Below, piece after piece: positions 2,458-47,365 of a DNA stretch of 64,000 nucleotides. The stretch is from contig OY970192.1 in assembly GCA_963708135.1 (NCBI GenBank), forward strand, positions 2,112,001 to 2,176,000, given 5' to 3'. The notes under the pieces are model-generated. The model searched no databases. It had not been told where the DNA came from and saw only the letters and a program-made list of their open reading frames with translations. How positions within the stretch are numbered: position 1 is the stretch's first letter; every line of letters begins with the position of its first letter. A program made the translations under genes and the position numbers. Origin of the DNA: an uncultured Gemmatimonadales bacterium (GTDB lineage Bacteria; Gemmatimonadota; Gemmatimonadetes; Longimicrobiales; RSA9).

Positions 2458-2475
2458 TGTGGCAGCCGCGCAACA
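2458..2475. promoter_or_regulatory. Palindromic activator site, copy 1
   Basis: TGTGGC-AGCCGC-GCAACA, one mismatch to TGTTGC-N6-GCAACA, in the divergent wzc/regulator intergenic region. Confidence 0.65.
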
Positions 2476-2672
2476 GTCGCGCCCGCCGCCCGTTCGCCCT
2501 CCGCGATCGGCCGCGCAACCCGCTCCTGCCTGCGCTCAGCGGCACCTGATAGGCGCCCGGCGGAACCGCCAAGGGCATCGCCCCGGCGACGGCACCCGCG
2601 TTGCGTTCGATGACGGGACCGCCAGTCGACGGGCCGGCGGCCCGTGCTCCTCTCCTCGAAAGACCGGAAGTG

Positions 2673-4208
2673 ATGTCGCTTCACGCAAGCAGCGACAGCG
2701 ACAACCGGGATCCGGGGCTCGCCGGCGGCGGTGACGCCGCTCGGACCGTCCCCGCGGTCCTCGATGCGGGGACCCGTTCGAGCGTGAAGGTCCTCGTGGC
2801 GGGCGACGATGCCGGCGTCCGAAGCCTCTGCGACGAAACGCTCCGATCGCTGGGATACGCGGTCACGGTATCCGGGCGGGCGGAGGAGGCGGCCGATCTG
2901 CTTCGCCGCCGCCGCTTCGACGTCGCGGTGGTGGATGGGGACCTGAACCGGGGCGAGTCCCCCGCCCTCATGCACAGCCTCGCGGCGGTCGCCTCCGAGA
3001 CATTCGTCGCGGTGATCACCGGGGCGGTTCCCGTCCAGTCGGTGCTCGATGCCCCTCCGTTCGCGCGGGCGTTCCTGGCCAAGCCGTTCACCGCGCGACA
3101 TCTCGAGCTGGTCGTGGAGCGGCTCGCGCACGGCGTGCTCGCCGCGCGGCGTGTCCGCTCGCTCCGGCACGACATGGCCGGAGGCGGGCCCGGGGAGGCG
3201 ATCTCGGTCATCGGGCAGTCGGCCGCGCTGAGGCAGGCGGTCGAGCTCGCGCGCCGCGTGGCGCCCACGGAGGCGCCGGTCTTCATCACGGGCGAGAGCG
3301 GCAGCGGCAAGGAGCAGATCGCCCAGTTCATCCATCTGCACAGCAGGCGCGCCGCCCGGCCGATGCTCGCGCTGAACTGCGCGGCGCTGCCGGAGGCGCT
3401 CCTCGAGTCGGAGATGTTCGGGCACCGTCGAGGCGCGTTCACGGGTGCCGTGGGGGAGCGACCGGGTCTGCTCGAGGCCGCTCATCGAAGCAGCCTCTTC
3501 CTGGACGAGCTCACCGAGATGCCCGTGACGCTCCAGGCCAAGCTTCTGCGCGTGATCCAGGACGGTCACGTGCGCCGCGTCGGCAGCAACTCGACGGACG
3601 CGGTGGTGGACGTCCGCTTCATCGCGGCCACGAACCGCCCCCCGCAGGAGGCGATCACGGAAGGGCGGCTGCGGCGCGACCTCTTCTACCGGCTGCGCGT
3701 CATCCCGATCCACATCCCGCCGCTGCGCGAGCGGACCGAGGACATCCCGGCGCTGGCGTCGTACTTCCTCGAGGACTTCTGGTCGCGGCACCGCCTGGGG
3801 GAGATTCCAATGCCGGTGCTGGGCGCCGACGCCATCGCCGACCTGCAGGCGCGGCCCTGGCCAGGCAACGTGCGCGAGCTGCAGAACACGATCGAGTACG
3901 CCGTGGTCCTGCTCGACCCCGGGCAGGTGATCACACCCGACGACCTGCCGGCCTTCGGCGAGGGCGGCGAGCGAGGAGTCGGGATCGGGCGTGCCGCGGC
4001 GGGGGAGGACTTCGCGGGCGAAAGCTACCACGAGGCGAGAGAGCGGGTGCTGGCGGAGTTCGAGCGTGGCTACCTCACCTGGCTGGTCGATCGCGCCACC
4101 GGCAACATCTCGAGGGCCGCGCGCATGGCCGGCGTGGACCGCACGACGCTCTACCGCCTCATGGACAAGTACGGCTTCCAGCGCGGCGCCAGCGTAAACG
4201 AGCGTTAG
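2673..4208 (+). CDS. sigma54-dependent activator (REC-AAA+-Fis HTH), paralog 1
   Basis: GESGSGKE Walker A, GAFTGA loop, LFLDE Walker B, WPGNVRELQN, and HTH ISRAARMAGVDRTTLYRLM. The N-terminal receiver is divergent. Start uncertain (2601-2673). Confidence 0.92.
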   Translation: MSLHASSDSDNRDPGLAGGGDAARTVPAVLDAGTRSSVKVLVAGDDAGVRSLCDETLRSLGYAVTVSGRAEEAADLLRRRRFDVAVVDGDLNRGESPALMHSLAAVASETFVAVITGAVPVQSVLDAPPFARAFLAKPFTARHLELVVERLAHGVLAARRVRSLRHDMAGGGPGEAISVIGQSAALRQAVELARRVAPTEAPVFITGESGSGKEQIAQFIHLHSRRAARPMLALNCAALPEALLESEMFGHRRGAFTGAVGERPGLLEAAHRSSLFLDELTEMPVTLQAKLLRVIQDGHVRRVGSNSTDAVVDVRFIAATNRPPQEAITEGRLRRDLFYRLRVIPIHIPPLRERTEDIPALASYFLEDFWSRHRLGEIPMPVLGADAIADLQARPWPGNVRELQNTIEYAVVLLDPGQVITPDDLPAFGEGGERGVGIGRAAAGEDFAGESYHEARERVLAEFERGYLTWLVDRATGNISRAARMAGVDRTTLYRLMDKYGFQRGASVNER

Positions 4209-4233
4209 GTCCTGCCCGCGGCGCTCCCTTTCC

Positions 4234-5415
4234 TCATCCGGCTGCGACCACATCCCGGCGCGTCGGCTCCCAGAGCGCCTGCCGCTCCTGCCGGAGCGCG
4301 TGGAAGAAGGCATGGATCGCCGCGACGTTTCCCGCGAGAACGTAGGCCGGCAGGGCCAGCATGCGGGGCAGCCGCCGCTTGCCCGCGAGCAGCCAACCGA
4401 GCCCGCCGGCGGCAGTGAGCGCGGCCGCCGGAACTGCTGCCCAGAGGGCCGCCGGCCGAACGATCGAGAGAAGCGCCAGCCCCACGGCCCCGCCCGCCGC
4501 CGCCCATGGCACCATCCAGCGGCAGATCTTGTGGCTGAACAGCATCCAGGAGAAGCGGCCGTACCGGACCGGGTCGAGGAGCGCTCGCCGGTTCCACAGC
4601 GTCTCCATGCCCCGCCCGATGGTGCGGACCTTCCGGCGGTACTCCGTCCGGAGCGAGGCCGTTCGCGGGACGAGACAGGTCGCCTCGTCCACCGACACGG
4701 CCCGGTAGCCCTTCTCCCGCGCGATCAGTGCCGCCGCGAAATCCCGGCTCAGGTGGCCCGGCAGCGGCACGCGGTGCAGCTCGCGCCGGATCGCATAGAA
4801 GCAGCCGGACGCCCCGACGATCCCCCCGGCGCCAGTCTCCAGCCGCCGCACCCACATCTCGTAGCCGACGTAGCCCGACTCGCCTCCATTCGCGGTCGCG
4901 TCCGTGGCGCCGACGCTGATGTCGCGCCCGGAGGCGAGACCGACGGCGGGATCCGCCAGTTCACGGACCAGGGGCTTCAGCGCCCCCGGCTGAATCCGGA
5001 TCGAGGCGTCCGTGTTCACCACGATGTCCCCGCGCAGGTGCGGCGCCGCCGCGCTCTCCGCCGCTCCCTTGCCCCCCCGCCGAGGCATGCGCAGCAGCTC
5101 GACGCCCGAAGCCGCGTACTCCGCGACGATGGCGTCGGTGCCATCCGTCGAAGCGTCGGAGACCACCAGGATCTGGAGCCGGTCGGACGGATAGTCGATC
5201 CGGAGGAGCGCCTCCACGGCGCCGCGGATCTGCGCGGCCTCGTTGTACGCCGGCAACGCGATGCTCACGGCGGGCCACTCCTCGAGCCCGCCTCGCGCGC
5301 CCGCCGCCGGACCATCCCGACCCCCGAGACCGAGCAGGATGAGCGGATAGCCCACGTACGCGTACACCGCCAGCGCCACGGCCCCCGTGACCAGGGCCAA
5401 CCCGATGATCGTCAT
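4234..5415 (-). CDS. GT2 glycosyltransferase, membrane-anchored
   Basis: PAYNEA, SDASTDGT, GKGAA, NTDA and RRKVR motifs; N- and C-terminal TM segments. Confidence 0.88.
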   Translation of the reverse strand: MTIIGLALVTGAVALAVYAYVGYPLILLGLGGRDGPAAGARGGLEEWPAVSIALPAYNEAAQIRGAVEALLRIDYPSDRLQILVVSDASTDGTDAIVAEYAASGVELLRMPRRGGKGAAESAAAPHLRGDIVVNTDASIRIQPGALKPLVRELADPAVGLASGRDISVGATDATANGGESGYVGYEMWVRRLETGAGGIVGASGCFYAIRRELHRVPLPGHLSRDFAAALIAREKGYRAVSVDEATCLVPRTASLRTEYRRKVRTIGRGMETLWNRRALLDPVRYGRFSWMLFSHKICRWMVPWAAAGGAVGLALLSIVRPAALWAAVPAAALTAAGGLGWLLAGKRRLPRMLALPAYVLAGNVAAIHAFFHALRQERQALWEPTRRDVVAAG

Positions 5416-5749
5416 CCGTTACAGTTCCTGCGCGAGAGGGAAGCGCCGTCCGAGGTCCACGGTACGGCGGTGGAAGACGTGGTGGAAAGTTCCGTGCCGG
5501 CCATCGCCGCCGTCGTGCCGCCACCGCTCCCGGCCGGGTGTGGTGGGCGTCCCACAGCCGTAGTGGGAAGAGCGCAGCGCGGGGCGCCGCACGGGAAGCC
5601 GGTGATGCTGCGCAAGTCGCTGCCCTAGCAATGTTTAGGTAGCATTTGGCGGCCGTGCCGCGGGTGCGAACGCACCTTGCACCGGCACCTCGCTGCCAAT
5701 CGTCCCAACGGCGGGCTGTCTATCCCCGTTTCGCTTCTGGAGCGTCTCT

Positions 5750-6514
5750 GTGTTTCGCAACCCCGAGCAGAGCGTAGTCTCGTTCGAGCGCGCCACGCAG
5801 GACAGGTCGGCCGTCCTTTCCCGCCTCCGGCCCCTCGACTTCCGTGACCTGATCCCGTTCGATGGTGCCGCCGACCTGGCGGGCGGCAGTGTCCGCCGGC
5901 TGCTCAACGTGGCCGTCGCGGCGACGGGCCTGGTGCTTGGCGCCCCTCTCATGCTGCTGATCGCGGTGCTGATCAAGCTGCTGGACGGTGGGCCGGTGAT
6001 CTACCGCCAGACACGCGTCGGCGTCGACCGGCGCAGGCCGGGCAGCGGTGGCAATCACCGTCGCAGCGTCGATCTGGGCGGCAGGCCGTTCACCATGTAC
6101 AAGTTCCGCACGATGCGCGTGGCGCAGGATGAGCGCGCGCAGGTCTGGGCGTCCCCGGACGATCCCCGCGTCACCCGGCTCGGGCGGCTGCTGCGCAGGA
6201 GCCGCCTGGATGAGCTCCCGCAGCTCTGGAACGTGCTGCGGGGAGACATGAACATCGTGGGTCCGCGGCCGGAGCAGCCCGAGATCTTCATGGACCTGCG
6301 CACGCAGATCCGGCGCTACTCCCAGCGCCAGCGTGTTCTGCCTGGCATCACGGGTTGGGCGCAGGTGAATCTGACCTACGACCGCGATGTGGCCGACGTT
6401 CGGAGGAAGCTGGAGTACGACCTGCGCTACATCTCGCGCCAATCCGCGCTGGAGGACATGCGGATCATGGCGCGCACCATCCCGATCGTCCTTCTCCGCA
6501 GGGGGGCCTGGTAG
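5750..6514 (+). CDS. Priming undecaprenyl-phosphate sugar transferase (Bac_transf family)
   Basis: FTMYKFRTM, DPRVTRLGRLLRRSRLDELPQLWNVLRGDMNIVGPRPE, PGITGWAQV, ends GAW. Confidence 0.93.
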   Translation: MFRNPEQSVVSFERATQDRSAVLSRLRPLDFRDLIPFDGAADLAGGSVRRLLNVAVAATGLVLGAPLMLLIAVLIKLLDGGPVIYRQTRVGVDRRRPGSGGNHRRSVDLGGRPFTMYKFRTMRVAQDERAQVWASPDDPRVTRLGRLLRRSRLDELPQLWNVLRGDMNIVGPRPEQPEIFMDLRTQIRRYSQRQRVLPGITGWAQVNLTYDRDVADVRRKLEYDLRYISRQSALEDMRIMARTIPIVLLRRGAW

Positions 6515-7422
6515 TGGATCGCCCCGCGGCTCTGCTCGATCCGCCGGGCGCGGCGGACCGAGCGGAGCCGATCGCCGCCTCCGCCCCCGGACCGACGGAG
6601 CTCCTGCCGGCCGCGGCCACCGCCGCGGCTTTCGTCGTCCTGTTCTGGACGCCCATGCGCACGCTGGTGGCGGACTGGTGGTCCGATCCGAACGCGCAGC
6701 ACGGCCTGCTTCTGGCGCCGCTCGCCGTCTACCTCGCCTGGAAGGCGGGCTGGGCCGAGGACGCGCGGCCGCGACCGCTTCTCGGCCTCGGCTTGCTGGC
6801 GTCGGCCGCGGTGCTGCGCTGGATCTCGGCCGTCGCGGCCGAGTACTTCACCATGCGATTCTCGATGCTGCTCGGGACCGTCGCCCTGGTCGTGCTGTAC
6901 CGCGGCGGCCGGCAGGTCCTCCGGTGGTGGCTCCCGCTCGGGCTGCTCCTGCTCTCGATCCCGCTCCCCAACATGGTGCTGAACACGCTGGCGCTGCCGC
7001 TCCAGTTCAAGGCGTCGCAACTGGGTGCGGGGATGCTCGAGCTGCGCCACATCCCCGTTCATCTCAGCGGCAACATCATCCAGCTGCCGGGGCGGACGCT
7101 GTTCGTGACGGAGGCGTGCAGCGGACTGCGCTCGCTGACGGCCCTTCTCGCGCTCGGGCTGCTGATCGGCGGCCTGTGGCTGCGCTCTCCCCTCACGCGC
7201 GCGCTGCTCGTCGCCCTGGCCATTCCGGTAGCCGTGCTCCTGAACGGCATCCGGGTGTTCCTGACCGGATTCCTGGTCTTCTTCGTCAACCCCGAGCTGG
7301 GCGAGGGCCTGCTGCACATGACGGAAGGCTGGGCGATCTTCGTCGTCGCGTTCGTGATCCTCGGCGCTGTCGCCTGGATGCTGGCCGGGCTCGAGGCGCT
7401 GCGCTCGCGGAGGGCGGCATGA
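6514..7422 (+). CDS. Exosortase (EpsH/XrtA-like) transpeptidase
   Basis: Multi-TM protein with Cys/Arg/His motifs VTEACSGLRSL, LNGIRV and LHMTEG. GTG 6514 overlaps the upstream stop. Confidence 0.92.
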   Translation: MDRPAALLDPPGAADRAEPIAASAPGPTELLPAAATAAAFVVLFWTPMRTLVADWWSDPNAQHGLLLAPLAVYLAWKAGWAEDARPRPLLGLGLLASAAVLRWISAVAAEYFTMRFSMLLGTVALVVLYRGGRQVLRWWLPLGLLLLSIPLPNMVLNTLALPLQFKASQLGAGMLELRHIPVHLSGNIIQLPGRTLFVTEACSGLRSLTALLALGLLIGGLWLRSPLTRALLVALAIPVAVLLNGIRVFLTGFLVFFVNPELGEGLLHMTEGWAIFVVAFVILGAVAWMLAGLEALRSRRAA

Positions 7423-8060
7423 CGCGCGCGCGCCTCCGCTGGGCCCCCGCCGCGATTCTCGGTCTCGGCGCCGTGGCGACGCTCGGCGTTTCCGCCGAGC
7501 GGGCGCTTCCGCTCCGCGAACCGCTCGGCACGGCGGTACCCGAGCGGATCGCCGGTCTCGACGGCAGCGACCAGCCGGTTTCGGCCGCCGAGCGGCAGGT
7601 TTCCGGCGTGGGCGACTACCTGTTCAGGATCTACGACACGCCGGGCGGCCAGGGGCCTCTCTTCACCATCTACGTCGGGTACTATCCGAGTCAGCGACAG
7701 GGCAAGAGCATCCACTCACCGAAGAACTGCCTTCCCGGCGCGGGCTGGGAGCCCCTGACGTCGCGTCAGGAGATGATCGCCACGGCGGACGGTCCCGTAC
7801 CGGTCAACCAGTATCTGCTCCGCAAGGGAGACGAGTACGCACTCGTCCTCTACTGGTATCAGGGACGGGGCCGCGTGGTGGCCAACGAGTACTCGGTGAA
7901 GTGGTACCTGCTCCGCGACTCGGCCTTCCGCCACCGCAGCGACGAAGCGCTGGTGCGCGTGCTCGTGCCGGTCACGGGCTCGCAGGAGAGCGCCTCGGAG
8001 CTGGCGCGGAAAGTGGCCGCCAGGCTGGTGCCCGCCGTCAGCCAGGCCCTGCCGAGCTGA
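7419..8060 (+). CDS. epsI: EpsI family exosortase-associated protein
   Basis: YVGYYPSQRQGKSIHSPKNCLPGAGW, YWYQGRGR and DEALVRV; ATGA-coupled to the exosortase. Confidence 0.88.
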   Translation: MTRARLRWAPAAILGLGAVATLGVSAERALPLREPLGTAVPERIAGLDGSDQPVSAAERQVSGVGDYLFRIYDTPGGQGPLFTIYVGYYPSQRQGKSIHSPKNCLPGAGWEPLTSRQEMIATADGPVPVNQYLLRKGDEYALVLYWYQGRGRVVANEYSVKWYLLRDSAFRHRSDEALVRVLVPVTGSQESASELARKVAARLVPAVSQALPS

Positions 8061-8067
8061 GAGCCGC

Positions 8068-8307
8068 GTGGAGCGAGCTGCTCCCGACTCCACCGCCTCC
8101 CGGCGCGCTGGACGGCGCCACCCCGCACCGATACGTTCGGGAATGCCCCCGCCCGCCGGCCCTTCCGGACTCGTGATCATCCCCGCCGCCATCGGGGTCG
8201 TGGCTCTCGCAGCCATCGCGGGCGCAACCTGGGGCGCGAAGGCATTCGTGGGCATCTGCCTCGTCGCCTCCATTCTCGCCGGACTGCTGATCACGCGCGG
8301 GAAGTGA
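8068..8307 (+). CDS. Small hypothetical membrane protein (start may be ATG 8143)
   Basis: Two hydrophobic segments ending TRGK, directly after epsI; overlaps the convergent gene by 17 bp. Confidence 0.4.
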   Translation: MERAAPDSTASRRAGRRHPAPIRSGMPPPAGPSGLVIIPAAIGVVALAAIAGATWGAKAFVGICLVASILAGLLITRGK

Positions 8308-9454
8308 CGTCGCGGTAGATCTCCTCGTAGCGCGTGAGCCAGGGCTCGACGCCGAACGCCCGGTCCAGCCGCTCGCGTGCGCGGCCTGCCCGCGCGCGCG
8401 CCGCGTCGCGATCCTCCAGCACACGAGCGATCGCGCCCGCGAGCGCAGCGGCGGAATCCGGCGGAACGAGCATCGCCTCAGTCGGCGAGAGCACGTCCGG
8501 CACACCTCCGACCGCCGTGGCCACGATCGGAACGGCCGCCGCCATCGCCTCCAGCAGCACGATCGGGGTGCCCTCCGTCCGCGAGCTGAGGGTGAACACA
8601 TCGAAGGCCGGAAGCAGATCGCCCGCACCCGCGACCGCGCCGTACCAGTGGAAGCGCTCCGCCACGCCCGCCGAGACGGCCCGCGCCTCCAGGCGACGCC
8701 GCTCCCGCCCATCTCCGAGCACGGCGAACTCCAGCGGCGGACCGGCGATTCGCGCAGCTGCGTCCACGAGCAGATCGGCGGCCTTCTCCCGGCTGAGGCG
8801 GCCGATCCAGCCGACCACCAGCAAGTCCTCGTGGAGTCCGAGCCGCGTACGCGCGTCGGTGCGCGAGAGGCCGCCGGGACGCCCGCCCCAGGCGTTCGGA
8901 ACGACATGGATCCGGCGCGAAGCCGCCCCCGCCCGCCGCAGCTCCCGCACCTGCGCCCTCGACACCGCCACCACCGCATCCATCCCGCGGTAGCTCCGCC
9001 GCTGGAGCCACTCGTATGCCCGGTTCTTCCATCCCGAGCGGGTGAAGCCGTGAACGGTGGTGACGGTCGGAATCCCCAGCCGCCGAGCCACCCCGGACGC
9101 CAGAACATCGCTCCGGTAGCCGTGCGTGTGGACGACATCCGGCCGCAGCCTAGCGCACAGCTCCCGGAGAAGCCGCCGCTCGCGCCGATACGCCCGATCG
9201 GGGACGACGACCGGATGGACCGCAGCGCCGGCGGCCCGCAGCGCCTCAAGGACCGGGTGCCCCTCTTCCCCGGGGCCGACCACCGCCGCCACGTGGACAT
9301 GGTGTCCGCGCCGGACATGCCCCGCGGCGAGCGCTTCCACCACCGCCTCCAGGCCCCCGTAGGGCGCAGGCGCCAGCACGTGCAGCACCACGAGTGGCGA
9401 CGCTATGGGCACCGCCTCCCTGCCCGCCGTCGTTTCGCCTGTCGCCATCGGCAT
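8291..9454 (-). CDS. GT4 glycosyltransferase
   Basis: VLHVL..YGGLE, DVVHTHG, GRLSREK, SSRTEGTPIVLLEAMAA. Start trimmed to ATG 9454/9448 from the track's 9538. Confidence 0.9.
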   Translation of the reverse strand: MPMATGETTAGREAVPIASPLVVLHVLAPAPYGGLEAVVEALAAGHVRRGHHVHVAAVVGPGEEGHPVLEALRAAGAAVHPVVVPDRAYRRERRLLRELCARLRPDVVHTHGYRSDVLASGVARRLGIPTVTTVHGFTRSGWKNRAYEWLQRRSYRGMDAVVAVSRAQVRELRRAGAASRRIHVVPNAWGGRPGGLSRTDARTRLGLHEDLLVVGWIGRLSREKAADLLVDAAARIAGPPLEFAVLGDGRERRRLEARAVSAGVAERFHWYGAVAGAGDLLPAFDVFTLSSRTEGTPIVLLEAMAAAVPIVATAVGGVPDVLSPTEAMLVPPDSAAALAGAIARVLEDRDAARARAGRARERLDRAFGVEPWLTRYEEIYRDVTSRA

Positions 9455-9486
9455 TTCCGTCGTCCCGATCGCCGTCCGCCAGCAGG

Positions 9487-9504
9487 TGTTGCGCGCGCGC
9501 AACA
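9487..9504. promoter_or_regulatory. Palindromic activator site, copy 2 (perfect)
   Basis: TGTTGC-GCGCGC-GCAACA between divergent GT4 genes. Confidence 0.75.
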
Positions 9505-9669
9505 CTCGCCGCTGCGGCAGCCGTTTCTGCCGCTCCACGAGCGCGGATCACCGCCGCGCGGCCGGGCCGACACGGAGGGTCGGAAGCTCGATTGAGGGGT
9601 AAGATCGCGCGGAGCCCCGCGCCTCACCGGCGCGGCCGACTCGACGCGGCGGATCCCGGGGTGGCGGGT

Positions 9670-9685
9670 TGGCAAGATCCATGCA
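9670..9685 (+). promoter_or_regulatory. sigma54 -24/-12 promoter
   Basis: TGGCAAGATCCATGCA (GG-N10-GC), 70 bp upstream of ATG 9755. Confidence 0.7.
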
Positions 9686-9754
9686 CTGCGCGCTTCCGCG
9701 CGCTCCCAGGGATCGGAGCGCAGATTCGTCCGTCCAGCGCCGCGGAAATTCCTA

Positions 9755-10972
9755 ATGGTTGATGGCGGTCTCGACAATCCGGGCACCCTGCTGTGTGTGG
9801 CCGCGTTCCCTGCCAACACCGGCTTCGCCTGGGACTTCATCGAGGGCCTGTTCGCGGGCCTCGCGGACAGGCTCGCGGAGCGTGGGGTGGCCACCCGGGT
9901 GGCGTACCCCGCGGTCGCCTCTTCGCCGCGCCCGCTGGCGGGGAGCGCGGCCCGGGCCGTCCTGCTGCCCTTGAGGCTTGGCTCTCCCGTGAGCTGGTGG
10001 CGCGTGCTGCGCTTCGTCCGCAGGGAGCGCGTCCGGGTCGCGTATCTCGCGGACCGTCCGGTTGCGCACCCCTTTTACGCCGCACTCCGTCTCGCGGGTG
10101 TCGGATGGATCGTGGTCCACGATCACACCTCGGGCGCCCGGACGCCGCCGGCGGGAATGAAGCGCCTCATGAAGGCAGCCTTCGTGCGGCTCCCGGGGGT
10201 GCTGGCGGATCGGGTGGTGGCGGTGAGCGATTTCGTGGCGACGAGAAAACGCGAGGTGGACCTGGTGCCCGCCGCCCGGGTGCGACGGATCTGGAACTCG
10301 GTCCCGCTGCCCGCCATGGACCCGGCGCTCTCGGCGCGCCGGCGCGAGGCGCTCGGACTGGAGATGGGGCGGCCGGTCGTCGCCTGCGCGTGCCGTGCGG
10401 CGCCGGAAAAGGGGGTCCAGCACCTGCTCCGCGCGTTCGACCGCTTGTGCGCCACCGAGATGGGGGCCACGCTCCGCCCGCAGCTGCTCTACATGGGAGA
10501 TGGGCCTCACCTGCCGGCGCTCCGCGAGCTGAGGGACGCCTTGCCGGCTCGCGATAGCATCACGCTCGCGGGCTACGTGCCGGACGCGGCGGAACTGCTG
10601 GCCGGCTGCACGCTCTGCGTGGTGCCCTCCGTCTGGGAGGAGGCGTTCGGACTGGCCGCGCTGGAGCCGATGGCGCGCGCCGTGCCGGTCGTGGCGAGCC
10701 GCGTCGGCGGGATCCCGGAGGTCCTGCTCGACGGAGAGACGGGGCTGCTCGTGCCCCCGGCGGACGAGCGAGGCCTCGCGACCGCCATGGCGCGGCTGCT
10801 CGCGGATCCGGAGCTGCGCCTCCGACTGGGCGAGGCCGGGCGGCGGCGCGCGGCGGAGCACTTCTCCCGGGAGGCGGCCCTCGACGCGCTCGGCGCGCTC
10901 ATCGAAGCGGCCTTCCCCGCTCCCGATCAGAGAGCATCGGCTCGGAACGGCGCGCTGGCGGTGCGAGGATGA
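9755..10972 (+). CDS. GT4 glycosyltransferase
   Basis: VAVSDFVA, PEKG, PSVWEEAFGLAALEPMA, SRVGGIPEV. Confidence 0.88.
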   Translation: MVDGGLDNPGTLLCVAAFPANTGFAWDFIEGLFAGLADRLAERGVATRVAYPAVASSPRPLAGSAARAVLLPLRLGSPVSWWRVLRFVRRERVRVAYLADRPVAHPFYAALRLAGVGWIVVHDHTSGARTPPAGMKRLMKAAFVRLPGVLADRVVAVSDFVATRKREVDLVPAARVRRIWNSVPLPAMDPALSARRREALGLEMGRPVVACACRAAPEKGVQHLLRAFDRLCATEMGATLRPQLLYMGDGPHLPALRELRDALPARDSITLAGYVPDAAELLAGCTLCVVPSVWEEAFGLAALEPMARAVPVVASRVGGIPEVLLDGETGLLVPPADERGLATAMARLLADPELRLRLGEAGRRRAAEHFSREAALDALGALIEAAFPAPDQRASARNGALAVRG

Positions 10973-11961
10973 GGACCGTGGCAGAGCGCGACGAAACGAA
11001 GAGCGATCCGGCGGCGCCGGTCGGCGGGCCGAAGAAGCTCTTCATCGTTGGCTGCCCGCGGAGCGGCACCACCTGGGTGCAGCTTCTGCTCTCGCAGCTG
11101 CCGACGGTCGCGACGGCGCCGGAGACCCAGATCTTCGCCTATTATCTGACCCATTTCGAGCGCCAATGGCGGCACGAGCTCGCCGGCGCGGACCGAGAGC
11201 AGGGCGCGGCCGGGCTCAGCCGGCTCCTGAGCGAGGAGGAGTTCATCGAGCTCTGCCGCCTGAACGCGAGCTTCGTGCTCGACAGGATCGGCGCGCGCAA
11301 TCCCGGCGCCGCACTCGTCGTCGAGAAGAGTCCCAAGCACGCGCTGCAGGCGGAGCTGATCCGGCGTGTGTTTCCGGACGCGTTGTTCCTCCATGTGATC
11401 CGTGACCCGCGCGACACCGCCGCGTCGCTCCTGGCCGCGGGCCGCAGCTGGGGCCGCGGCTGGGCGCCGCAGAACGCCATCACCGCGGCGCGGTGGTGGG
11501 TAGACCACGTCACGTCGGCACGGCGCCTGGCGGGCTCGACCGACGGATACAGGGAAGTGAAGTACGAGAGCCTGCGCGAGAACGCCGCCTCGGAGCTCCA
11601 GTCGATCCTCGACTGGCTCGGCATCCCGGAGCGGCGTGAGAGCTGCGAGCGCATTGCCGCCGCGTGCGACATCGACCGCCTTCGCGGAGGTGCGGCCGCG
11701 GCGGACCTCCCGATCCCGGGGGAGAAGAACCCGGCCGGATTCTTCCGCAAGGGAAAGCCGGGCGGCTGGCGCGACGATCTGACGGGTCGCGAGGTCCGGC
11801 AGATCGAGCACATCTGCGGCCCGACAATGGAAACGGCGCAGTACGCGCGGACGTCGCGCGCCTGGTCACCCGCCCTCCTCGGCATCCCCCTGCACGATGG
11901 CCTCGGCCGCATCCGCGAGAGCATCGACTGGCAGCTGGCGAGAATCATGGTGCGGTTGTGA
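10969..11961 (+). CDS. PAPS-dependent sulfotransferase (Sulfotransfer_3-like)
   Basis: 5'-PSB loop FIVGCPRSGTTW, EKSP, 3'-PB IRDPRDTAAS, VKYESL, FFRKGKPGGWR. Confidence 0.9.
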   Translation: MRTVAERDETKSDPAAPVGGPKKLFIVGCPRSGTTWVQLLLSQLPTVATAPETQIFAYYLTHFERQWRHELAGADREQGAAGLSRLLSEEEFIELCRLNASFVLDRIGARNPGAALVVEKSPKHALQAELIRRVFPDALFLHVIRDPRDTAASLLAAGRSWGRGWAPQNAITAARWWVDHVTSARRLAGSTDGYREVKYESLRENAASELQSILDWLGIPERRESCERIAAACDIDRLRGGAAAADLPIPGEKNPAGFFRKGKPGGWRDDLTGREVRQIEHICGPTMETAQYARTSRAWSPALLGIPLHDGLGRIRESIDWQLARIMVRL

Positions 11962-17081: not shown

Positions 17082-17150
17082 GGCGCCGCGGTCGCCACGG
17101 GCGCGAGCCGCCCGTTGCGGGCCGATTGACGGGGGCGTCGGCCCCGCTCT

Positions 17151-18144: not shown

Positions 18145-18162
18145 TGTTGCGTGCGCGCAACG
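18145..18162. promoter_or_regulatory. Palindromic activator site, copy 3
   Basis: TGTTGC-GTGCGC-GCAACG, preceded by an extra GCAACA half-site at 18137-18142. Confidence 0.7.
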
Positions 18163-18213: not shown

Positions 18214-18229
18214 CGGCAAGATCCATGCG
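18214..18229 (+). promoter_or_regulatory. sigma54 -24/-12 promoter
   Basis: CGGCAAGATCCATGCG; its 14-nt core GGCAAGATCCATGC is identical to the element at 9671-9684. Confidence 0.7.
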
Positions 18230-29772: not shown

Positions 29773-29788
29773 TGCAAACTCAGCGCCG
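29773..29788 (-). promoter_or_regulatory. sigma54 -24/-12 promoter
   Basis: Minus strand CGGCGCTGAGTTTGCA, about 50 bp upstream of ATG 29724. Confidence 0.7.
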
Positions 29789-29868: not shown

Positions 29869-29886
29869 TGTTGCGCTCCTGCAACA
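29869..29886. promoter_or_regulatory. Palindromic activator site, copy 4 (perfect)
   Basis: TGTTGC-GCTCCT-GCAACA. Confidence 0.75.
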
Positions 29887-34459: not shown

Positions 34460-34477
34460 TGTTGCGTCCGTGCAACA
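34460..34477. promoter_or_regulatory. Palindromic activator site, copy 5 (perfect)
   Basis: TGTTGC-GTCCGT-GCAACA. Confidence 0.75.
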
Positions 34478-34564: not shown

Positions 34565-34580
34565 GGGCATGGTCCCTGCT
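34565..34580 (+). promoter_or_regulatory. Candidate sigma54 -24/-12 promoter for the sulfate operon
   Basis: GGGCATGGTCCCTGCT (GG-N10-GC). Confidence 0.5.
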
Positions 34581-36463: not shown

Positions 36464-36496
36464 TGAGGCACCCGGTGAAGGGAAGATGATCTGAGC

Positions 36497-40626: not shown

Positions 40627-40718
40627 GAGCGAACTTCTCCTCGCGCGGACGGTTCGGCCCTGATCGAGCGTGGAGTATGGACGCCCGGCACCGTTCGTGG
40701 CAACGACCCCTGGCGACC

Positions 40719-40736
40719 TGTTGCATGCGTGCTACA
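40719..40736. promoter_or_regulatory. Palindromic activator site, copy 6
   Basis: TGTTGC-ATGCGT-GCTACA. Confidence 0.68.
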
Positions 40737-40845
40737 TTGGCCCGCGAGGGGCCCGGCGGGCCGGCGCGGCCCGCGCTCCGCCCGGGAAGCGCGCAGGCGC
40801 GGCCGCCCGGAGCGAGCCACGGCGCGCGGGACGAACGCACGCTCC

Positions 40846-40861
40846 CGGCACATGTTGTGCT
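40846..40861 (+). promoter_or_regulatory. sigma54 -24/-12 promoter
   Basis: CGGCACATGTTGTGCT, about 85 bp upstream of ATG 40947. Confidence 0.65.
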
Positions 40862-40946
40862 GCGCCCGCGTGGCGAGGCTGGGTCCTCCTGGGGGACACG
40901 TGCGACGATCGGACCACCAAAGCGGCACAACAGAACGAGACAATCC

Positions 40947-43900
40947 ATGGTTGGATTCTGGGTTCGCCCGGCCGCTCGCGGGCTGCAGGCCGCGACTTGC
41001 GTGCTGGTGCTTTGCGCCGGAAGCCTGGCCGGCCAGACGTTGACGACCGGGTCGATCCGGGGCGTGGTGCGGGGTGAGGCCGGCGCCGGGCTCGGCGGCG
41101 TATCCGTGATGGCGGTCGATGCGGCGACGGGCGTGTCGCACTCCGCGATGACGGCGCCAGGCGGGGTCTTCGTCTTCTCTCAGCTCACGCCCGGAGAGTA
41201 CGACGTCGTGGCGGAACGGCTGGGCTACCGGCCGAAGCGGGTACTGAACGTTCCGGTGCAGCCGCTGGCTTCGACGCCGGTGATCGTGGCGCTTGCGCCG
41301 GCTCCCCCGCCGGTGGGCGCGGCGGACGTCGAGCCATATGGTGGGGCGGCGCTCGCGACGGGCGGCACGCGGCAGTGGTTCGGGCGCGAGCAGGTGAACG
41401 GCTACCCGGACCTGCGCCGCGAGCTCGCGGACGTGGGTCGGCTCTCGAGCCTCTCCGACGGGGCGCTCTCGATGCAGGGGCTCCCGGGTTGGATGGCGGA
41501 CGTCGTGGTGGACGGGATCCCCGGCGCCGCGGTGCGGCAGCCGGGAGTCGCGGACGAGCGGATGCGTACGGCGGCGTTCCCGCTGAGCGGCATCGAGGCG
41601 GCGGAGCTGGTGACGAACCCGGCCGACGTGGAGTGGCCGGGCAGCGCGGCTGGGCTGCTGGCGGGATACACCCTGCGCGGGACGGACAAGCTTCGGGTGA
41701 GCGGGTTCGGCCGGTGGTCGGGCGGACCGCTCGGCAGCTCAGACCCGGGAGCACAGGCGGAGGGCACTCCGACCGACCTGCAGGGGGCCGTGGTGCTGGC
41801 CGGGCCGCTGGCGGGCGACAGCGCCCACATCCTCGTCGGCGTGGAAGGGCGACGGGTGGAACGCCCGCTGGGAGCGGCCTGGGCCGGGGCGGCAGCGAGC
41901 GCCCTGCAGGGGGCGGCGCGGGACGGCCTCGGCGTTACGCTGGACCCCTATCTCGAGCCGCGGAAGGTCAGCAGCGAGGTGATCTCCGCCTTCAGCCGGG
42001 TGGACTGGCAGGTCACCCCCGTCCACGCGGTGGAGCTTCGGGCATCGTTCGCAACGCTTCCGACCTCCGATCCCGGGTTCGACGTAACCCGCGCGGGCAT
42101 CGGACCGCTCACGACGCTGAAGGGGTCGGACGTGTCGGTGGGCGCGACGCTGCGGTCGGAGCTCTCGGCGGAGCTGACGTCGGAGCTGCGGATCGGGGTC
42201 GATCGCGGGACACGCGAGCGTGCGGCGGCTCCGATCGCCGGGATCGCGCAGGGCGCGGCGCTCCCCTTCGTCGCCCTGGCGTCGGACCGGCTGGCCTTCG
42301 GCACGGACCCGACGCTGCCGGGCAGCTTCACGGAGACGACGATCCACGCCAGCGAGACGCTCCAGAAGACCGCGGGTGCCCAGGAACTGAAGTTCGGGAT
42401 CGACCTCGCCGCGCCGAAGTACCAGGAGACGTACCGCTACGGCTCCGCGGGCGAGGTGTTCTTCGGCAGCGTAGCGGGCGTCGGCGCGAGGGATGGCGTC
42501 TTCATGGAACCCACGGGCGCGGCGCCGACGGCGAGCTTCTCCGTTCCGCGCGTCTCCCTGTTCCTGCAGGACCACTGGGCGGCGTTGCCGGGCCTGGATC
42601 TGGTGGGCGGCGTGCGCGTGGATCGAGACCGGCTGCCGTCGAGCGACATCACGCTCAACCCGGCCTGGGACAGCCTCACGGCGATCTCGAACGCGAGCCT
42701 CGCGTCCGGCCGGACTCACGTCTCGCCGCGCGCCAGCCTGACGTGGGACCTGGGCGAGCAGGGCCGGTGGATCCTCGAGGCCGCCGGGGGGCTCTACTAC
42801 GATCGGATCGATCCCGCCGTGCTGGCGCAGCTGCTGACGGACGACGGCCGCACGCAGATCCGGCGCGGCATCGGGGTCGTGGACAGCTGGCCGACGTTCA
42901 CCAGCGTTTCGGGCACGACGACGCTGGCGCCGAGCCTGAGCGTGGCGGGCCCGAAGCTCGATGCTCCGCGGACGGCGCGCGGGAGCGCGAGCCTGACCAT
43001 GGTGCTGGGCGGCGGGACGCGGCTGAGGATCGGCGGGATCGTGCGCCACACGGACTACCTGCCGCGCAGCATGGACCTGAACCTGGTGCCGGCCGCGATC
43101 GGGCAGGACCAGTTCGGGCGTGCGCTCTATGGCCAGCTCGTCCAGAAGGGCGGGGTCCTGGCGGCGCAGCCTGGGTCGAACCGGCGCTTCAGCAGCTTCG
43201 ACATCGTGTCGGGGATCTCATCCGATGGGAGCTCCGACTACCGCGCCGTGACCATCTCCCTCGAGCGGGAGGCCAGCACGCGGCTCTCGCTGCTGGCGGG
43301 CTACACCTACTCGCAGTCCACCGACAACTGGCTGGGCAGCGGAGTGTTCGGAGAGGCCACGGCGTTCCCGCCGCTGCTGGGCGGGACCGCGTCGGGGTGG
43401 GCGGACGGGACCTCCGACTTCGATGTGCCGCACCGCTTCGTGGCCGGCGCCCAGATCCGCGGACCGGCGGGGGTCCGGCTGGCGGCGCTCTACCGCTACG
43501 CGTCCGGCCGGCCGTTCACTCCCGGCTTCGGGCCGGGCATCGACGCCAATGGCGACGGCATTGCCGGCAACGATCCGGCGTTCGTGTCCCGCGACGTGAG
43601 CGGTGCGTCGGACCTGGTGGGCCAGTGGAGCTGCCTCGCCGGGCAGGCGAGCGCGTTCGCGGCGCGGAACAGCTGCCGGGGGCCCGCGATGCAGACGCTG
43701 GATGCGCGGCTGGCGGTGAAGGTCTTCTCGTTGGGTGCTTCCACCGCCGAGCTGCGCGTGGAGGGGCTCGACCTGATCCACGAGGGAACAGACGTTCCCG
43801 ACCCGGCGCTCTACCTGGTGAATCCGGCGGGGACGCTCACGAGTGACGCCAGCGGCCGCGCAACGGTTCCGCTGATGGCGAATCAGCACTTCGGCAACCC

Positions 43901-43958
43901 GCTCGGCTTCAGCGCGCCGGGCGCGACGATCCTCCTTGGCATTGCCCTGAACTGGTGA
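40947..43958 (+). CDS. Oar-like TonB-dependent outer-membrane beta-barrel with an N-terminal carboxypeptidase-regulatory-like domain
   Basis: Signal peptide from ATG 40947, then QTLTTGSIRGVV..L.PG.Y.V.AE..G; SLFLQDHW, SPR, SDFDVPHRF; terminal W. Confidence 0.8.
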   Translation: MVGFWVRPAARGLQAATCVLVLCAGSLAGQTLTTGSIRGVVRGEAGAGLGGVSVMAVDAATGVSHSAMTAPGGVFVFSQLTPGEYDVVAERLGYRPKRVLNVPVQPLASTPVIVALAPAPPPVGAADVEPYGGAALATGGTRQWFGREQVNGYPDLRRELADVGRLSSLSDGALSMQGLPGWMADVVVDGIPGAAVRQPGVADERMRTAAFPLSGIEAAELVTNPADVEWPGSAAGLLAGYTLRGTDKLRVSGFGRWSGGPLGSSDPGAQAEGTPTDLQGAVVLAGPLAGDSAHILVGVEGRRVERPLGAAWAGAAASALQGAARDGLGVTLDPYLEPRKVSSEVISAFSRVDWQVTPVHAVELRASFATLPTSDPGFDVTRAGIGPLTTLKGSDVSVGATLRSELSAELTSELRIGVDRGTRERAAAPIAGIAQGAALPFVALASDRLAFGTDPTLPGSFTETTIHASETLQKTAGAQELKFGIDLAAPKYQETYRYGSAGEVFFGSVAGVGARDGVFMEPTGAAPTASFSVPRVSLFLQDHWAALPGLDLVGGVRVDRDRLPSSDITLNPAWDSLTAISNASLASGRTHVSPRASLTWDLGEQGRWILEAAGGLYYDRIDPAVLAQLLTDDGRTQIRRGIGVVDSWPTFTSVSGTTTLAPSLSVAGPKLDAPRTARGSASLTMVLGGGTRLRIGGIVRHTDYLPRSMDLNLVPAAIGQDQFGRALYGQLVQKGGVLAAQPGSNRRFSSFDIVSGISSDGSSDYRAVTISLEREASTRLSLLAGYTYSQSTDNWLGSGVFGEATAFPPLLGGTASGWADGTSDFDVPHRFVAGAQIRGPAGVRLAALYRYASGRPFTPGFGPGIDANGDGIAGNDPAFVSRDVSGASDLVGQWSCLAGQASAFAARNSCRGPAMQTLDARLAVKVFSLGASTAELRVEGLDLIHEGTDVPDPALYLVNPAGTLTSDASGRATVPLMANQHFGNPLGFSAPGATILLGIALNW

Positions 43959-45535
43959 AGAAGATGCGCAGGCTCCTCGCAGTCAGTTTCTGCGCCGTGG
44001 CGGTCGTCACTGCGGCCGTCTCGCTGTCCGGATGCGACTCCAACGGGGCCGACCGGGTGCTCTCGGTCGATGCGACCGGGACCGTGGCCGCCGGCGCGTT
44101 CATCGACCGGAACGGCGATGGCGTCTTCCAGACCACGGACGCTCTGGCGCCGGGCGTGAAGATCTCCCTCGTCTGGCCCGGTGGCACCACTCCGGTGGCA
44201 AGCGGCGTGACCACGCCCGGCGGCACGCTGCTGCTGCGGGATGTGCCGGTGGGACGCTACGATGTAGTCGTGGACGACGCCTCGTTCGGCGACTCGCTCC
44301 GGGTGACGCGCATCGACACATCCGTCGTCACCGTCGCGGCCGGGGACACGGCCCGGGCCATCGTCGCGCTCGGATACCCGCCCGCGAGCATCGCGGCCGT
44401 ACGGCAGATGCCCGTCGGGCGGAAGGTGGAGGTGGAGGGGATCGCGCTCAATGGCTGGGCCGCCTTCGGCGACTCGAGCGTCTTCGTACAGGACTCCACG
44501 GGGGCGCTGCGCGCAGTCCGCGTCCGGCCGACGCAGCTGTTCCTGGGAGACAGCGTCCGCCTGGTCGGGACGGTGAGCGTGCTGAACGGGCAAACGGTGC
44601 TGGCGGGCGTGGACGCCCGGGTGCTCGCGACCGGGATCACCCCGCCCGAGCCGATCCCGCTCAGCACGGCCAACGCCGCCACGGCCAACGGTGGGACGCT
44701 CGATGCGGCGCTCGTCCGGATCACCGGCGCGAGCATCCTCTCGCTGCGGCTCGACACCGATGGCAACCTCGTCGCCACGGTGGATGATGGTTCCGGCGCG
44801 GTGGACCTGGTCATCGGCGCACACACGGCGATCCAACTCCAGCCGACGTTCACGCCCGGCGCCCTGCTGGATGCCACTGGTCTGCTAGCCCCCGTGGCCG
44901 GCCAATCCACCTGGGCGCTTCATCCGCGCACGGGCACCGATCTCAATGCGACTTTCCGGTCCGTGACCATCGCCGAGGCGCGCACGCTCCCGGTCGGACG
45001 AGCCGTGCAGGTTGAGGGGATCGCGCTCAACGGTTGGGCCACGTTCGCGGACTCCACGGTGCACATCGTGGATTCGACCGGCGCCCTGCGGATGCTTCAC
45101 GTGAAGCCCGTGACCCTGTTCGCGGGCGACAGCGTGCGCATGATCGGCACGATCGCCATGCGGGACGGCCAGGTGGTGCTGACCGGGGTCACACCGCTCG
45201 TTCTCGCCACGGGACGGACCGTGCCGACGCCACGGACGATCACTACGGCCGTGGCGGCGAACGCGTCGGCCGGTGTCCTCGACGCGGCGTTGGTGCACAT
45301 TACCGGGGCCGTCGTGCAGGACACGATGTACGATGCGGTGAGCGGCGACCTGGGGCTGTGGGTGGATGACGGAAGCGGGCAGGTGCTCGTGGTAATCGAC
45401 CGGGATCTGGGGCTGGCACTCGGGCCGTATGCTCCCGGCAAGACGCTGGACATCACTGGTCTGCTCATCCCGACGGCGGGCGGAGCGACCTGGTTCCTGA
45501 AGCCGCGCTCCGGGGCCGACCTGGTGGTGCATTAG
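43955..45535 (+). CDS. Lipoprotein: SdrD-B-like domain plus two ~190-aa tandem repeats (OB-fold-like)
   Basis: Lipobox LSGC; FIDRNGDG; duplicated VEGIALNGWA.F.DS...DSTGALR...LDAALV.ITGA...VDDGSG...PR.G.DL. Confidence 0.75.
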   Translation: MKKMRRLLAVSFCAVAVVTAAVSLSGCDSNGADRVLSVDATGTVAAGAFIDRNGDGVFQTTDALAPGVKISLVWPGGTTPVASGVTTPGGTLLLRDVPVGRYDVVVDDASFGDSLRVTRIDTSVVTVAAGDTARAIVALGYPPASIAAVRQMPVGRKVEVEGIALNGWAAFGDSSVFVQDSTGALRAVRVRPTQLFLGDSVRLVGTVSVLNGQTVLAGVDARVLATGITPPEPIPLSTANAATANGGTLDAALVRITGASILSLRLDTDGNLVATVDDGSGAVDLVIGAHTAIQLQPTFTPGALLDATGLLAPVAGQSTWALHPRTGTDLNATFRSVTIAEARTLPVGRAVQVEGIALNGWATFADSTVHIVDSTGALRMLHVKPVTLFAGDSVRMIGTIAMRDGQVVLTGVTPLVLATGRTVPTPRTITTAVAANASAGVLDAALVHITGAVVQDTMYDAVSGDLGLWVDDGSGQVLVVIDRDLGLALGPYAPGKTLDITGLLIPTAGGATWFLKPRSGADLVVH

Positions 45536-45640: not shown

Positions 45641-47164
45641 TCAGGCCTTGGCCAGCGCGGTGCGACGCTGGAGGCCGTGGCGCTCCATGAAGCGGTAGAG
45701 GGTGGTGCGGTCGACGCCCGCGACGCGGGCGGCCTTGGAGATGTTGCCCTCCGCATGGGCGATCAGGGAGATCAGGTACTTGCGCTCGAAGTCCGCCAGG
45801 AGCTGCTCGCGGAGATCGTGGTAGGAGCGTCCCGAGTCGAGGGCCGCCGTGAAGCTCATCGACATCCCCGTTGCCGCCTCCGGCGCATCGGCTCCCTCGA
45901 TGAGCGGAAGCTCCGTCGGCTGGATCTCGCTTCCCGGCTCCAGCAGGACGACGGCGTGCTCGATGACGTTCTGCAGCTCGCGGACGTTGCCGGGCCAGGC
46001 GTGGCGCTGCAGCGTACGCAGCGCGGCGGCGCCGAACGCCGGCACCTCCTCGCCGCGCCGGTGGCGCGCCCAGAAGGTGCCCAGGAAATGCTCGGCCAGG
46101 ATCGGGATGTCCTCCAGGCGCTCGCGCAGCGGCGGGATGTGGAGCGGGACGACACGGAGCCGGTAGAAGAGGTCGCGCCGGAGCGAGTCATCCTCCATGG
46201 CCTCCTGCGGGTCCCGGTTCGTCGCGGCGATGAAGCGGATGTCCACCTGCGCGTTCACGACCGTGCTTCCCACGCGCCGCACGATGCCGTCCTGGATCAC
46301 CCGCAGCAGCTTGGCCTGCATCGGGAGCGGCATCTCGGTGAGCTCATCCAGGAAGAGCGTGCCGGAATCCGCAGCCTCGAGCAGCCCCTCCTTCTCCACG
46401 ACCGCGCCGGTGAAGGCGCCCTTCACGTGCCCAAACATCTCCGACTCGAGAAGCGCCTCGGGCAGCGCCGCACAGTTGAGCGCCACCAGCGTCCGACGGC
46501 TGCGGCGGCTGTTCTGGTGGATGAACTGCGCGATCACCTCCTTGCCACTGCCGCTCTCCCCGGTGATGAAGACCGAGGCGTCGGTTCTCGCCACGCGACG
46601 CGCCAGGTGCACCGCCTCGCGGAACGCGGGCGAGACACCGAGCAGACGGAGCGGCCCGGACCGGTCCGAGCCGCCGGTCTCGACCACCTGCGAGCGCCTG
46701 AGCTGCCCGACCGCGTGCGCCGCGCGGCCGACCAGCACGCGCAGGTGCTCGGCGGAGAAGGGCTTGGGGATGTAGTCCCAGGCACCAGCGCGAAGCGCCT
46801 CGAGGCTCGCCTCGACACTCGGATTGCTCGCGACCATCACGATGATCGTCTCGGGATGAGACAGAAGGCAGGCGCGCAACAACTCCATTCCCGGCACCTG
46901 CGGCATGTCCGCATCCAGCAGCACCAGGTCGTATCGCTGGCGGCGCACGATCTCCAGCGCCTCCTCGCCGCGCGAGCAGACCGTCACCGCGTGATCGTCC
47001 AGTTGCAGGATGCTCGCGCATCCCTGCGCGAGCGCCGGCTCATCCACCACGAGTGCGCGCAGCAGAGTGCGGCCGTCCGCCGGCACCGCCGCGTCCGCCA
47101 CCGCATAATCCCCCAACCGCCCCCGCATCCGCTTCCCGGAGACCACCGAGCCACCTACGGACAT
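45641..47164 (-). CDS. sigma54-dependent activator (REC-AAA+-Fis HTH), paralog 2
   Basis: GESGSGKE, GAFTGA, WPGNVRELQN, HTH ISKAARVAGVDRTTLYRFM; GGAGG-type RBS before ATG 47164. Confidence 0.92.
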   Translation of the reverse strand: MSVGGSVVSGKRMRGRLGDYAVADAAVPADGRTLLRALVVDEPALAQGCASILQLDDHAVTVCSRGEEALEIVRRQRYDLVLLDADMPQVPGMELLRACLLSHPETIIVMVASNPSVEASLEALRAGAWDYIPKPFSAEHLRVLVGRAAHAVGQLRRSQVVETGGSDRSGPLRLLGVSPAFREAVHLARRVARTDASVFITGESGSGKEVIAQFIHQNSRRSRRTLVALNCAALPEALLESEMFGHVKGAFTGAVVEKEGLLEAADSGTLFLDELTEMPLPMQAKLLRVIQDGIVRRVGSTVVNAQVDIRFIAATNRDPQEAMEDDSLRRDLFYRLRVVPLHIPPLRERLEDIPILAEHFLGTFWARHRRGEEVPAFGAAALRTLQRHAWPGNVRELQNVIEHAVVLLEPGSEIQPTELPLIEGADAPEAATGMSMSFTAALDSGRSYHDLREQLLADFERKYLISLIAHAEGNISKAARVAGVDRTTLYRFMERHGLQRRTALAKA

Positions 47165-47264
47165 CCACCCCTCCCTCGATAAGCTGTTCCCACCGCGCGG
47201 GCGAATGGATCCACCGCCCGCACCGCCGCTGGCGACGCGCATGCATACGAAAAGCATCAACTCC

Positions 47265-47280
47265 GGCAAAGCCAGCGCCG
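47265..47280 (-). promoter_or_regulatory. sigma54 -24/-12 promoter
   Basis: Minus strand CGGCGCTGGCTTTGCC, similar to the element at 29773-29788. Confidence 0.65.
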
Positions 47281-47347
47281 TTGCTGATGCTTCCAGTGAT
47301 GCCCGGATTTTTTACCTCGCGGGACGCGTCGTACTAGATAAGACACG

Positions 47348-47365
47348 TGTTGCTGAATGTCAACA
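47348..47365. promoter_or_regulatory. Palindromic activator site, copy 7
   Basis: TGTTGC-TGAATG-TCAACA, with an extra TGTTGC half-site at 47372-47377. Confidence 0.68.

Follow-up and report, generated by a model that had tools for sequence, protein, structure and literature searches.

The closest described counterpart of the system reported here is the PrsR/PrsK/PrsT system of Proteobacteria, in which a receiver-AAA+-Fis activator accompanies an exosortase exopolysaccharide (EPS) locus, and a dyad, the PEP-CTERM box, lies with a -24/-12 promoter element before PEP-CTERM genes (PMC1569441; PMC9850573 for Aquincola pepA). Haft et al. (2006) described this motif as limited to Proteobacteria, with others remaining to be found (PMC1569441). 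In Desulfovibrio vulgaris, two sigma54 activators, DVUA0057 and DVU0110, are predicted to act on one motif, with PEP-CTERM genes and an EPS operon as targets, and the regulon has DAP-chip (DNA affinity purification on chip) support (PMC3333781, PMC4641369). In Vibrio fischeri, the locus-encoded bacterial enhancer-binding protein (bEBP) SypG serves the sigma54 promoters of a single polysaccharide locus, syp, through a common enhancer (PMC10162802). The stretch analysed here (the window) comprises 64 kb of the genome of an uncultured Gemmatimonadales bacterium (GCA_963708135.1, contig OY970192.1, positions 2,112,001 to 2,176,000), from a phylum counted among the ten most abundant in soil (PMC8547001). 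The 18-bp palindrome TGTTGC-N6-GCAACA (the dyad) recurs within what, from its gene content, reads as an exosortase/PEP-CTERM Wzx-Wzy EPS locus with sulfotransferases and a supply of 3'-phosphoadenosine 5'-phosphosulfate (PAPS). Very probably, this dyad serves as the upstream activating sequence for NtrC-type sigma54 activators of a family from Gemmatimonadota, two members of which are encoded here.

Seven dyads had been reported in a preliminary description of the window, and all seven were confirmed at the same coordinates, three of them perfect and four with one mismatch (Table 1). Their description as intergenic also holds, since none (0/7) lies inside a gene called by a codon-model gene finder; this status does require trimmed start codons, as several dyads are spanned by raw open reading frames, among them those at 8291-9538 (-), 18068-19165 (+) and 40677-43958 (+). 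When up to two mismatches are allowed, the window contains 9 matches compared with a shuffled mean of 1.17 (largest count 7; 9 or more in 0/100 shuffles), and beyond 48 kb the sole match, at 51961 with two mismatches, lies inside an ABC-permease gene. Across the 5.45-Mb genome, 11 matches with at most one mismatch were found at a spacer of 6, as opposed to 1, 4, 3 and 0 at spacers of 4, 5, 7 and 8, respectively. Eight of the 11 fall inside 48.5 kb, namely the seven window sites and an eighth located 1157 bases left of the window (G000:2110843, in source genome coordinates). The window-corrected binomial p-value for this clustering is ~7e-13. Whole-genome pattern counts were rejected as a marker: matches occur in 31/31 relatives, with reversed-pattern controls similar or higher, and position alone is informative.

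The dyad recurs at homologous loci in the phylum. We compared the best 80 of 496 activator-homologue loci found, all of them in Gemmatimonadota. With at most one mismatch, these contain 32 dyads at a spacer of 6, compared with 2-7 at each of the spacers 3-5 and 7-9, mostly located between wzc and the activator gene; wzc is divergent from the regulator within 1.5 kb in 45 of the 80. Unseeded expectation-maximisation (EM) on 43 dereplicated wzc-activator regions, the source genome not being included, returned TGTTGc-N6-gCAACA as the best palindrome (score 241 at 18 columns, versus 145, 121 and 136 at 16, 17 and 19) and the -24/-12 element as the best non-palindromic motif. The promoter scores above 10 bits in 41/43 regions and has a dyad upstream in 41/41, with the nearest dyad-promoter distance being 80-96 bp in 18/41, a figure to be read in the light of matrices trained on the same regions and a layout that favours upstream positions. 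In its strict form, the -24/-12 element points towards wzc in 34/43 regions and towards the regulator in 19/43. Dyads in relatives are often tandem, with a spacing of 19-24 bp, and five other loci carry 3-7 dyads per 80 kb (0.65-1.85 when shuffled), with multiple sites in 5/5. Applied to the source genome, on which it had not been trained, the dyad matrix ranked the eight sites 2nd-9th of 5.4 million positions.

The dyad is also found ahead of exosortase cargo genes. Left of the window, both PEP-CTERM genes of the source genome occupy the second place of a two-gene operon. The first operon is headed by the eighth dyad, the second by a degenerate dyad (matrix rank 15th) with a strong -24/-12 element. 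The preliminary list of targets was therefore too short: both operons belong to it, and the site at 47348 as well as the plus side of the 2458 site face the activator genes. PEP-CTERM genes are present in 40/151 phylum genomes. Taking the best hit of 30 genomes, less the source genome and one without upstream DNA, 15 of the resulting 28 upstream regions reach at least 12 bits, in contrast to 0.5 for shuffled sequence, 0 for coding controls and 0 for the reversed pattern. EM on the same 28 regions again recovered the dyad, as TGTnGc-N6-gCnACA. The motif search of the genome and of orthologous loci proposed in the preliminary description thus came out in favour of the dyad, with 8 of 11 genome matches clustered and two EM recoveries in other genomes. 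It is well supported computationally that the regulon is larger than first described, and that it constitutes a Gemmatimonadota counterpart of the PEP-CTERM box. Separately, a small hydrophobic gene without a Pfam match precedes both PEP-CTERM genes (L001:18139-18636, L001:8575-9228), and is a possible exosortase accessory of an undescribed kind. Some Gemmatimonadota (G091, G101 and G122) have 24-38 PEP-CTERM genes, compared with 2 in the source genome.

Two receiver-AAA+-Fis activators, 54% identical to each other, are encoded in the locus. The recognition helix GVDRTTLYR is common to both and absent in the other 20 bEBPs of the genome; its core, DRTTLYR, is present in 80/80 homologues, of which 76 have the GAFTGA motif and 4 the variant GSFTGA. 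In a FastTree analysis of 50 rows, both activators and their homologues form one clade (Shimodaira-Hasegawa-like support of 100), apart from PrsR and from six of the genome's own bEBPs. Among named homologues, the one closest to activator 2 comes from Longimicrobiales. The de novo recovery of the dyad beside the homologues, a helix exclusive to these two of 22 bEBPs and the GAFTGA motif all argue for the earlier proposal that the dyad would be the operator of the two locus-encoded sigma54 activators. Two family members, P0029 and P0047, keep the DNA-binding helix and have lost both GAFTGA and the receiver Asp; they are candidate repressors of the same regulon.

To place the regulator in the phylum, 150 sampled genomes were surveyed, with five weak hits (E >= 5e-12) dropped. 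It was found in 84, including 39/41 exosortase genomes and 35/39 PEP-CTERM genomes, an overlap that is co-occurrence only because related genomes are not independent. With the regulator in 84 genomes and the exosortase in 41, it would be an EPS regulator first, with cargo attached where an exosortase exists. The preliminary description assigned control to two activators. Both are present here; most relatives, however, have a single activator and an adjacent kinase. This conserved histidine kinase adjoins the activator in 72/80 loci, lying directly behind it where inspected, and occurs in 74/150 genomes, 72 of which also have the regulator. The kinase is ~370 amino acids long and soluble, with a transmembrane-like stretch before the H-box in 0/72; one example (L050:11632-12702) has a short N-terminal region without a Pfam family. 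The linkage of regulator and kinase is, like the sites, their conservation and their pairing with -24/-12 elements, a direct result of the computation. A gene encoding a receiver and a degenerate GGDEF-like domain recurs in relatives, either in the interval from wzc to wza or immediately ahead of the activator (L003:6242-7165, L019:8672-9730), and was not found in the source genome.

Whether both activators operate the sites is a separate matter. It is possible, if rather unlikely, that activator 2 alone drives the regulon, with activator 1 a diverging duplicate on the same sites that either modulates or competes, or else responds to another signal. In line with this, activator 2 gives the higher score with 80/80 homologues (about 545 bits, versus about 450 bits for activator 1), activator 1 sits on a long branch (0.84) and has a receiver that deviates from the family signature, and homologues with the helix but without GAFTGA do exist (P0029, P0047). 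The receivers of both proteins in fact deviate from this signature, each keeping the phospho-Asp and Lys; in activator 2, Ala replaces the conserved Thr. Activator 1, on the other hand, retains GAFTGA, the Walker motifs, phospho-Asp, Thr, Lys and the helix, and occupies the ancestral position with its own -24/-12 element. A recent duplication could not be shown, as the two are not sisters in the 50-row tree.

It is improbable, in our view, that the neighbouring activators are bystanders and that some other regulator from elsewhere in the genome, whether of Fis type or unrelated (QseF/GlrR-like or PpsR-like), recognises the dyad. QseF does bind TGT-N12-ACA (PMC6075780), the same consensus is given for PpsR/CrtJ, and one of the genome's 22 bEBPs (2602116) branches as sister to the activator family, with a helix related to theirs. 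However, the dyad lies next to the gene for the activator in different families of the phylum, and a PpsR/CrtJ regulon was rejected, the best PpsR match in the source genome scoring 43 bits against a cut-off of 275. Three strong matches in two regulator-less genomes (G021, G023) were likewise rejected as counter-examples: they lie within open reading frames, without -24/-12 elements and without EPS genes.

The preliminary description paired each dyad with a GG-N10-GC element. These elements do exist, at 61-175 bp from dyad centre to GG for the seven window elements, but the bare pattern is no evidence by itself because, at a GC content of 71%, it lies near 98.8% of random intergenic positions. 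The refined pattern GG[CT][AG]-N7-TGC was found near 8/8 dyads versus a background of 20.7%, and a stricter version near 5/8 versus 3.2%. As these patterns were written after the sites were known, their p-values are optimistic, and the independent tests in other genomes therefore bear the weight. Fixed patterns were used since a sigma54 matrix trained on wzc promoters is too wzc-specific for other promoters.

VpsR- and TyrR-type regulators act on sigma70 promoters, and a real dyad could do likewise, its pairing with -24/-12 elements being partly fortuitous. The ubiquity of GG-N10-GC and the 3/8 elements that fail the strict pattern are compatible with this. It is nevertheless highly improbable given the GAFTGA or GSFTGA motif of the 80 homologues and the -24/-12 element as the strongest non-palindromic motif of the homologous regions, its strict form directed at wzc in most; a sigma70-like promoter was not found in window positions 1-20000, a weak test at this GC content. 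Chance matches or remnants of a dispersed repeat can practically be dismissed: although the 14-base elements at 9671 and 18215 have the same sequence, and some promoters may hence have arisen by local duplication, the dyads differ from one another in their six central bases and in their flanks, the clustering is extreme and the motif is conserved across genomes.

A number of observations do weigh against the dyad being the upstream activating sequence of this activator family. The family kinase was not found in the source genome, where the best candidate has 32% identity compared with 54-82% among the listed homologues. Only 13/24 dyads of the five other loci have a -24/-12-like element nearby, and an IHF consensus between dyad and promoter was found at 0/9 places examined. 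The best matrix score genome-wide belongs to G000:C1:3508481-3508498, a site outside the locus with neither an evident target nor a canonical -24/-12 element; the intergenic DNA around it is AT-rich, and the genes nearby are small and unknown. In a cargo-rich sample of 40 upstream regions from three genomes (20 of 30, 18 of 24 and 2 of 10 genes; two genes overlap the 28-genome set), only 20/40 reach 10 bits and only 10/40 reach 12 bits (shuffled 2.1 and 0.8), and many cargo genes are therefore without a strong dyad. The TGT-N12-ACA geometry is moreover common to other Fis-type helix-turn-helix (HTH) proteins, QseF (PMC6075780) and Desulfovibrio bEBPs, and is also that of PpsR. Within the source genome, several divergent genes lack a dyad and promoter pair, and the wcaJ-exosortase-epsI operon has only a 9.6-bit dyad (5539) without a canonical -24/-12 element. 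The circuit suggested earlier does not extend to every operon of the locus, the exceptions including the exosortase operon and the Ig-repeat gene, which has a -24/-12-like element at 22957 without a dyad. A c-di-GMP-I riboswitch (59.7 bits; 23013-23101) lies ahead of this Ig-repeat surface protein, and is predicted to provide a second input into the locus.

In bEBPs generally, the AAA+ domain contacts the sigma54 holoenzyme through the GAFTGA motif, and ATP hydrolysis opens the promoter. For this locus we infer binding, activation, feedback and a sulfated polymer, as follows. The Fis-type HTH would bind the 18-bp dyad, and the AAA+ domain would reach, via GAFTGA, the sigma54 holoenzyme at a -24/-12 promoter 60-175 bp away, which ATP hydrolysis by the activator would then open. 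A single signal could thereby switch on export (wzc/wza), glycosyltransferases, Wzx/Wzy, sulfotransferases and PAPS supply, along with acetyl/amido tailoring, the outer-membrane barrel and the PEP-CTERM cargo genes. In relatives, the input would come from the soluble histidine kinase encoded directly behind the activator. The 2458 dyad is likely a bidirectional enhancer serving wzc and activator 1, and the 47348 dyad would serve activator 2. As two divergent sigma54 promoters flank the ancestral site, the activators are predicted to switch on themselves, in a positive feedback. More tentatively, and with some doubt, we suggest that a 'PEP-CTERM box' circuit arose in Gemmatimonadota separately from that of Proteobacteria, consisting of soluble kinase, activator and bidirectional enhancer, in which positive feedback could give an all-or-none matrix switch. 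In the source genome, the kinase seems to have been lost, the activator doubled and both receivers altered, and the switch there may therefore run on activator level or a new, phosphorylation-independent input.

Domain annotation was performed with Pfam on 55 proteins and with NCBIfam on 44 locus proteins. The locus contains wzc, wza, a priming transferase, glycosyltransferases, wzy, wzx and four sulfotransferases, in addition to an SLC13-type transporter, cysD, cysNC, an XrtA-type deacetylase, FemAB-like and amidotransferase genes, an exosortase, EpsI and an outer-membrane barrel. The exosortase scores 154.8 with TIGR02602 (cut-off 105.55), and TIGR02914 is also above its cut-off among the locus proteins. 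The source genome, a single contig that is 97.65% complete, encodes one rpoN, one exosortase, 22 bEBPs and two PEP-CTERM genes (TIGR02595). The glycosyltransferase after the 18145 dyad (18339-19740) is interrupted near 19050, where a G-run carries a frameshift; a short-read contig from the single sequencing run containing this DNA has one extra G there, and the frameshift is therefore probably an assembly error. No RNA run was listed among those containing the sequence. Downstream of the outer-membrane barrel, positions 43964-45535 encode a 523-residue lipoprotein-like protein with repeated OB-fold-like units, and a similar pair is found in the G165 locus.

Table 1. Dyads, predicted promoter elements and selected genes of the locus (window coordinates).
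Feature	Position	Strand	Remarks
wzc (chain-length determinant/tyrosine kinase), then wza	1..2236	-	extends past window edge
-24/-12 element for wzc-wza operon	2345..2358	-	agrees with element found de novo in homologous regions
Dyad, 1 mismatch	2458..2475	no strand	separates wzc from activator 1; 17.0 bits, 9th in the genome; same position in homologous loci
-24/-12 element into activator 1 (predicted autoregulation)	2591..2604	+	absent from preliminary list
Activator 1, receiver-AAA+-Fis HTH	2673..4208	+	GAFTGA intact, receiver divergent
Priming transferase, exosortase, EpsI	5750..8060	+	exosortase Cys/Arg/His motifs present
Dyad, perfect	9487..9504	no strand	pattern and matrix scan
-24/-12 element for glycosyltransferase-sulfotransferase-wzy-glycosyltransferase-ATP-grasp operon (9755-17081)	9671..9684	+	
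Dyad, 1 mismatch	18145..18162	no strand	pattern and matrix scan
-24/-12 element for glycosyltransferase-wzx-deacetylase-sulfotransferase (about 18339-22806)	18215..18228	+	all 14 bases identical to 9671 element
-24/-12 element for XrtA-type deacetylase, FemAB-like, amidotransferase genes (29724-25749)	29774..29787	-	
Dyad, perfect	29869..29886	no strand	pattern and matrix scan
Dyad, perfect	34460..34477	no strand	pattern and matrix scan
-24/-12 element for SLC13-type transporter, cysD, cysNC (PAPS supply, 34685-39390)	34566..34579	+	
Dyad, 1 mismatch	40719..40736	no strand	pattern and matrix scan
-24/-12 element for TonB-receptor-like outer-membrane barrel and OB-fold lipoprotein-like gene (about 41001-45535)	40847..40860	+	
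Activator 2, receiver-AAA+-Fis HTH	45641..47164	-	GAFTGA intact; nearest to the single-copy regulator of the phylum
-24/-12 element into activator 2 (predicted autoregulation)	47266..47279	-	
Dyad, 1 mismatch	47348..47365	no strand	weaker tandem site adjoins at 47372 (12.6 bits)

The literature search, whose scope lay outside RegPrecise, supplements, figures and most subscription journals, found no description of the motif or of a Gemmatimonadota EPS/PEP-CTERM regulon. In PMC11406998, a PEP-CTERM gene is named solely for its induction by light, and the available text of PMC9862903 and PMC3162934 has nothing on the dyad or regulon. Among systems with a similar layout, SypG differs in its motif (TTCTCANNNTGMDWN), which is unrelated, and no exosortase link was seen in the available text (PMC10162802). 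QseF/GlrR has the same TGT-N12-ACA geometry and QseF is a sigma54 activator (PMC6075780), but both this system and PpsR/CrtJ differ in the inner bases and in their targets. GlrR is ~39% identical to activator 2, and the GlrR model scores far below its cut-off.

The comparison with PrsR is closer. The PEP-CTERM box is a 17-nt motif ending in TTTACA, in contrast to the 18-bp Gemmatimonadota site, and TTTACA occurs in just 2/28 of the Gemmatimonadota PEP-CTERM upstream regions. The sites on the Desulfovibrio plasmid pDV (TGTCGG-N5-..ACA, 17 bp) are also unlike the 18-bp dyad, with the Gemmatimonadota matrix scoring <=3.2 bits on three pDV PEP-CTERM upstream regions; DVUA0057 belongs to another phylum and is a PrsR by the score of the pDV protein. 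Membership of PrsR was rejected for the two activators, which score 312.5 and 358.5 with TIGR02915 against a cut-off of 502.6 (pDV PrsR control 585.4), have a different helix and form a clade that excludes PrsR. PrsK (TIGR02916) was rejected in the same way, with none above cut-off in the source genome or, at <=7 scored candidates each, in 151 genomes of the phylum, and PrsK differs from the soluble, ~370-residue partner kinase of Gemmatimonadota. PrsT (TIGR02917) has no match among the 44 locus proteins scanned, a genome-wide search not having been made. Unlike in the PrsR system, the Gemmatimonadota regulator is more widespread than the exosortase, and heads biosynthesis operons. This suggests that shared sigma54 control over polysaccharide and exosortase cargo was put together on more than one occasion, from different bEBPs. 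A predicted operator, activator and kinase are thus defined for Gemmatimonadota matrix and surface-protein genes, which fills the gap named by Haft et al. for PEP-CTERM regulators and motifs outside Proteobacteria, and the dyad matrix can be used to find matrix-biogenesis genes in uncultured genomes. Judged by protein and site comparison, the system is predicted to work like the PrsR/PEP-CTERM-box system without being a member of it: the logic is known, while the activator, the kinase and the DNA site are new.

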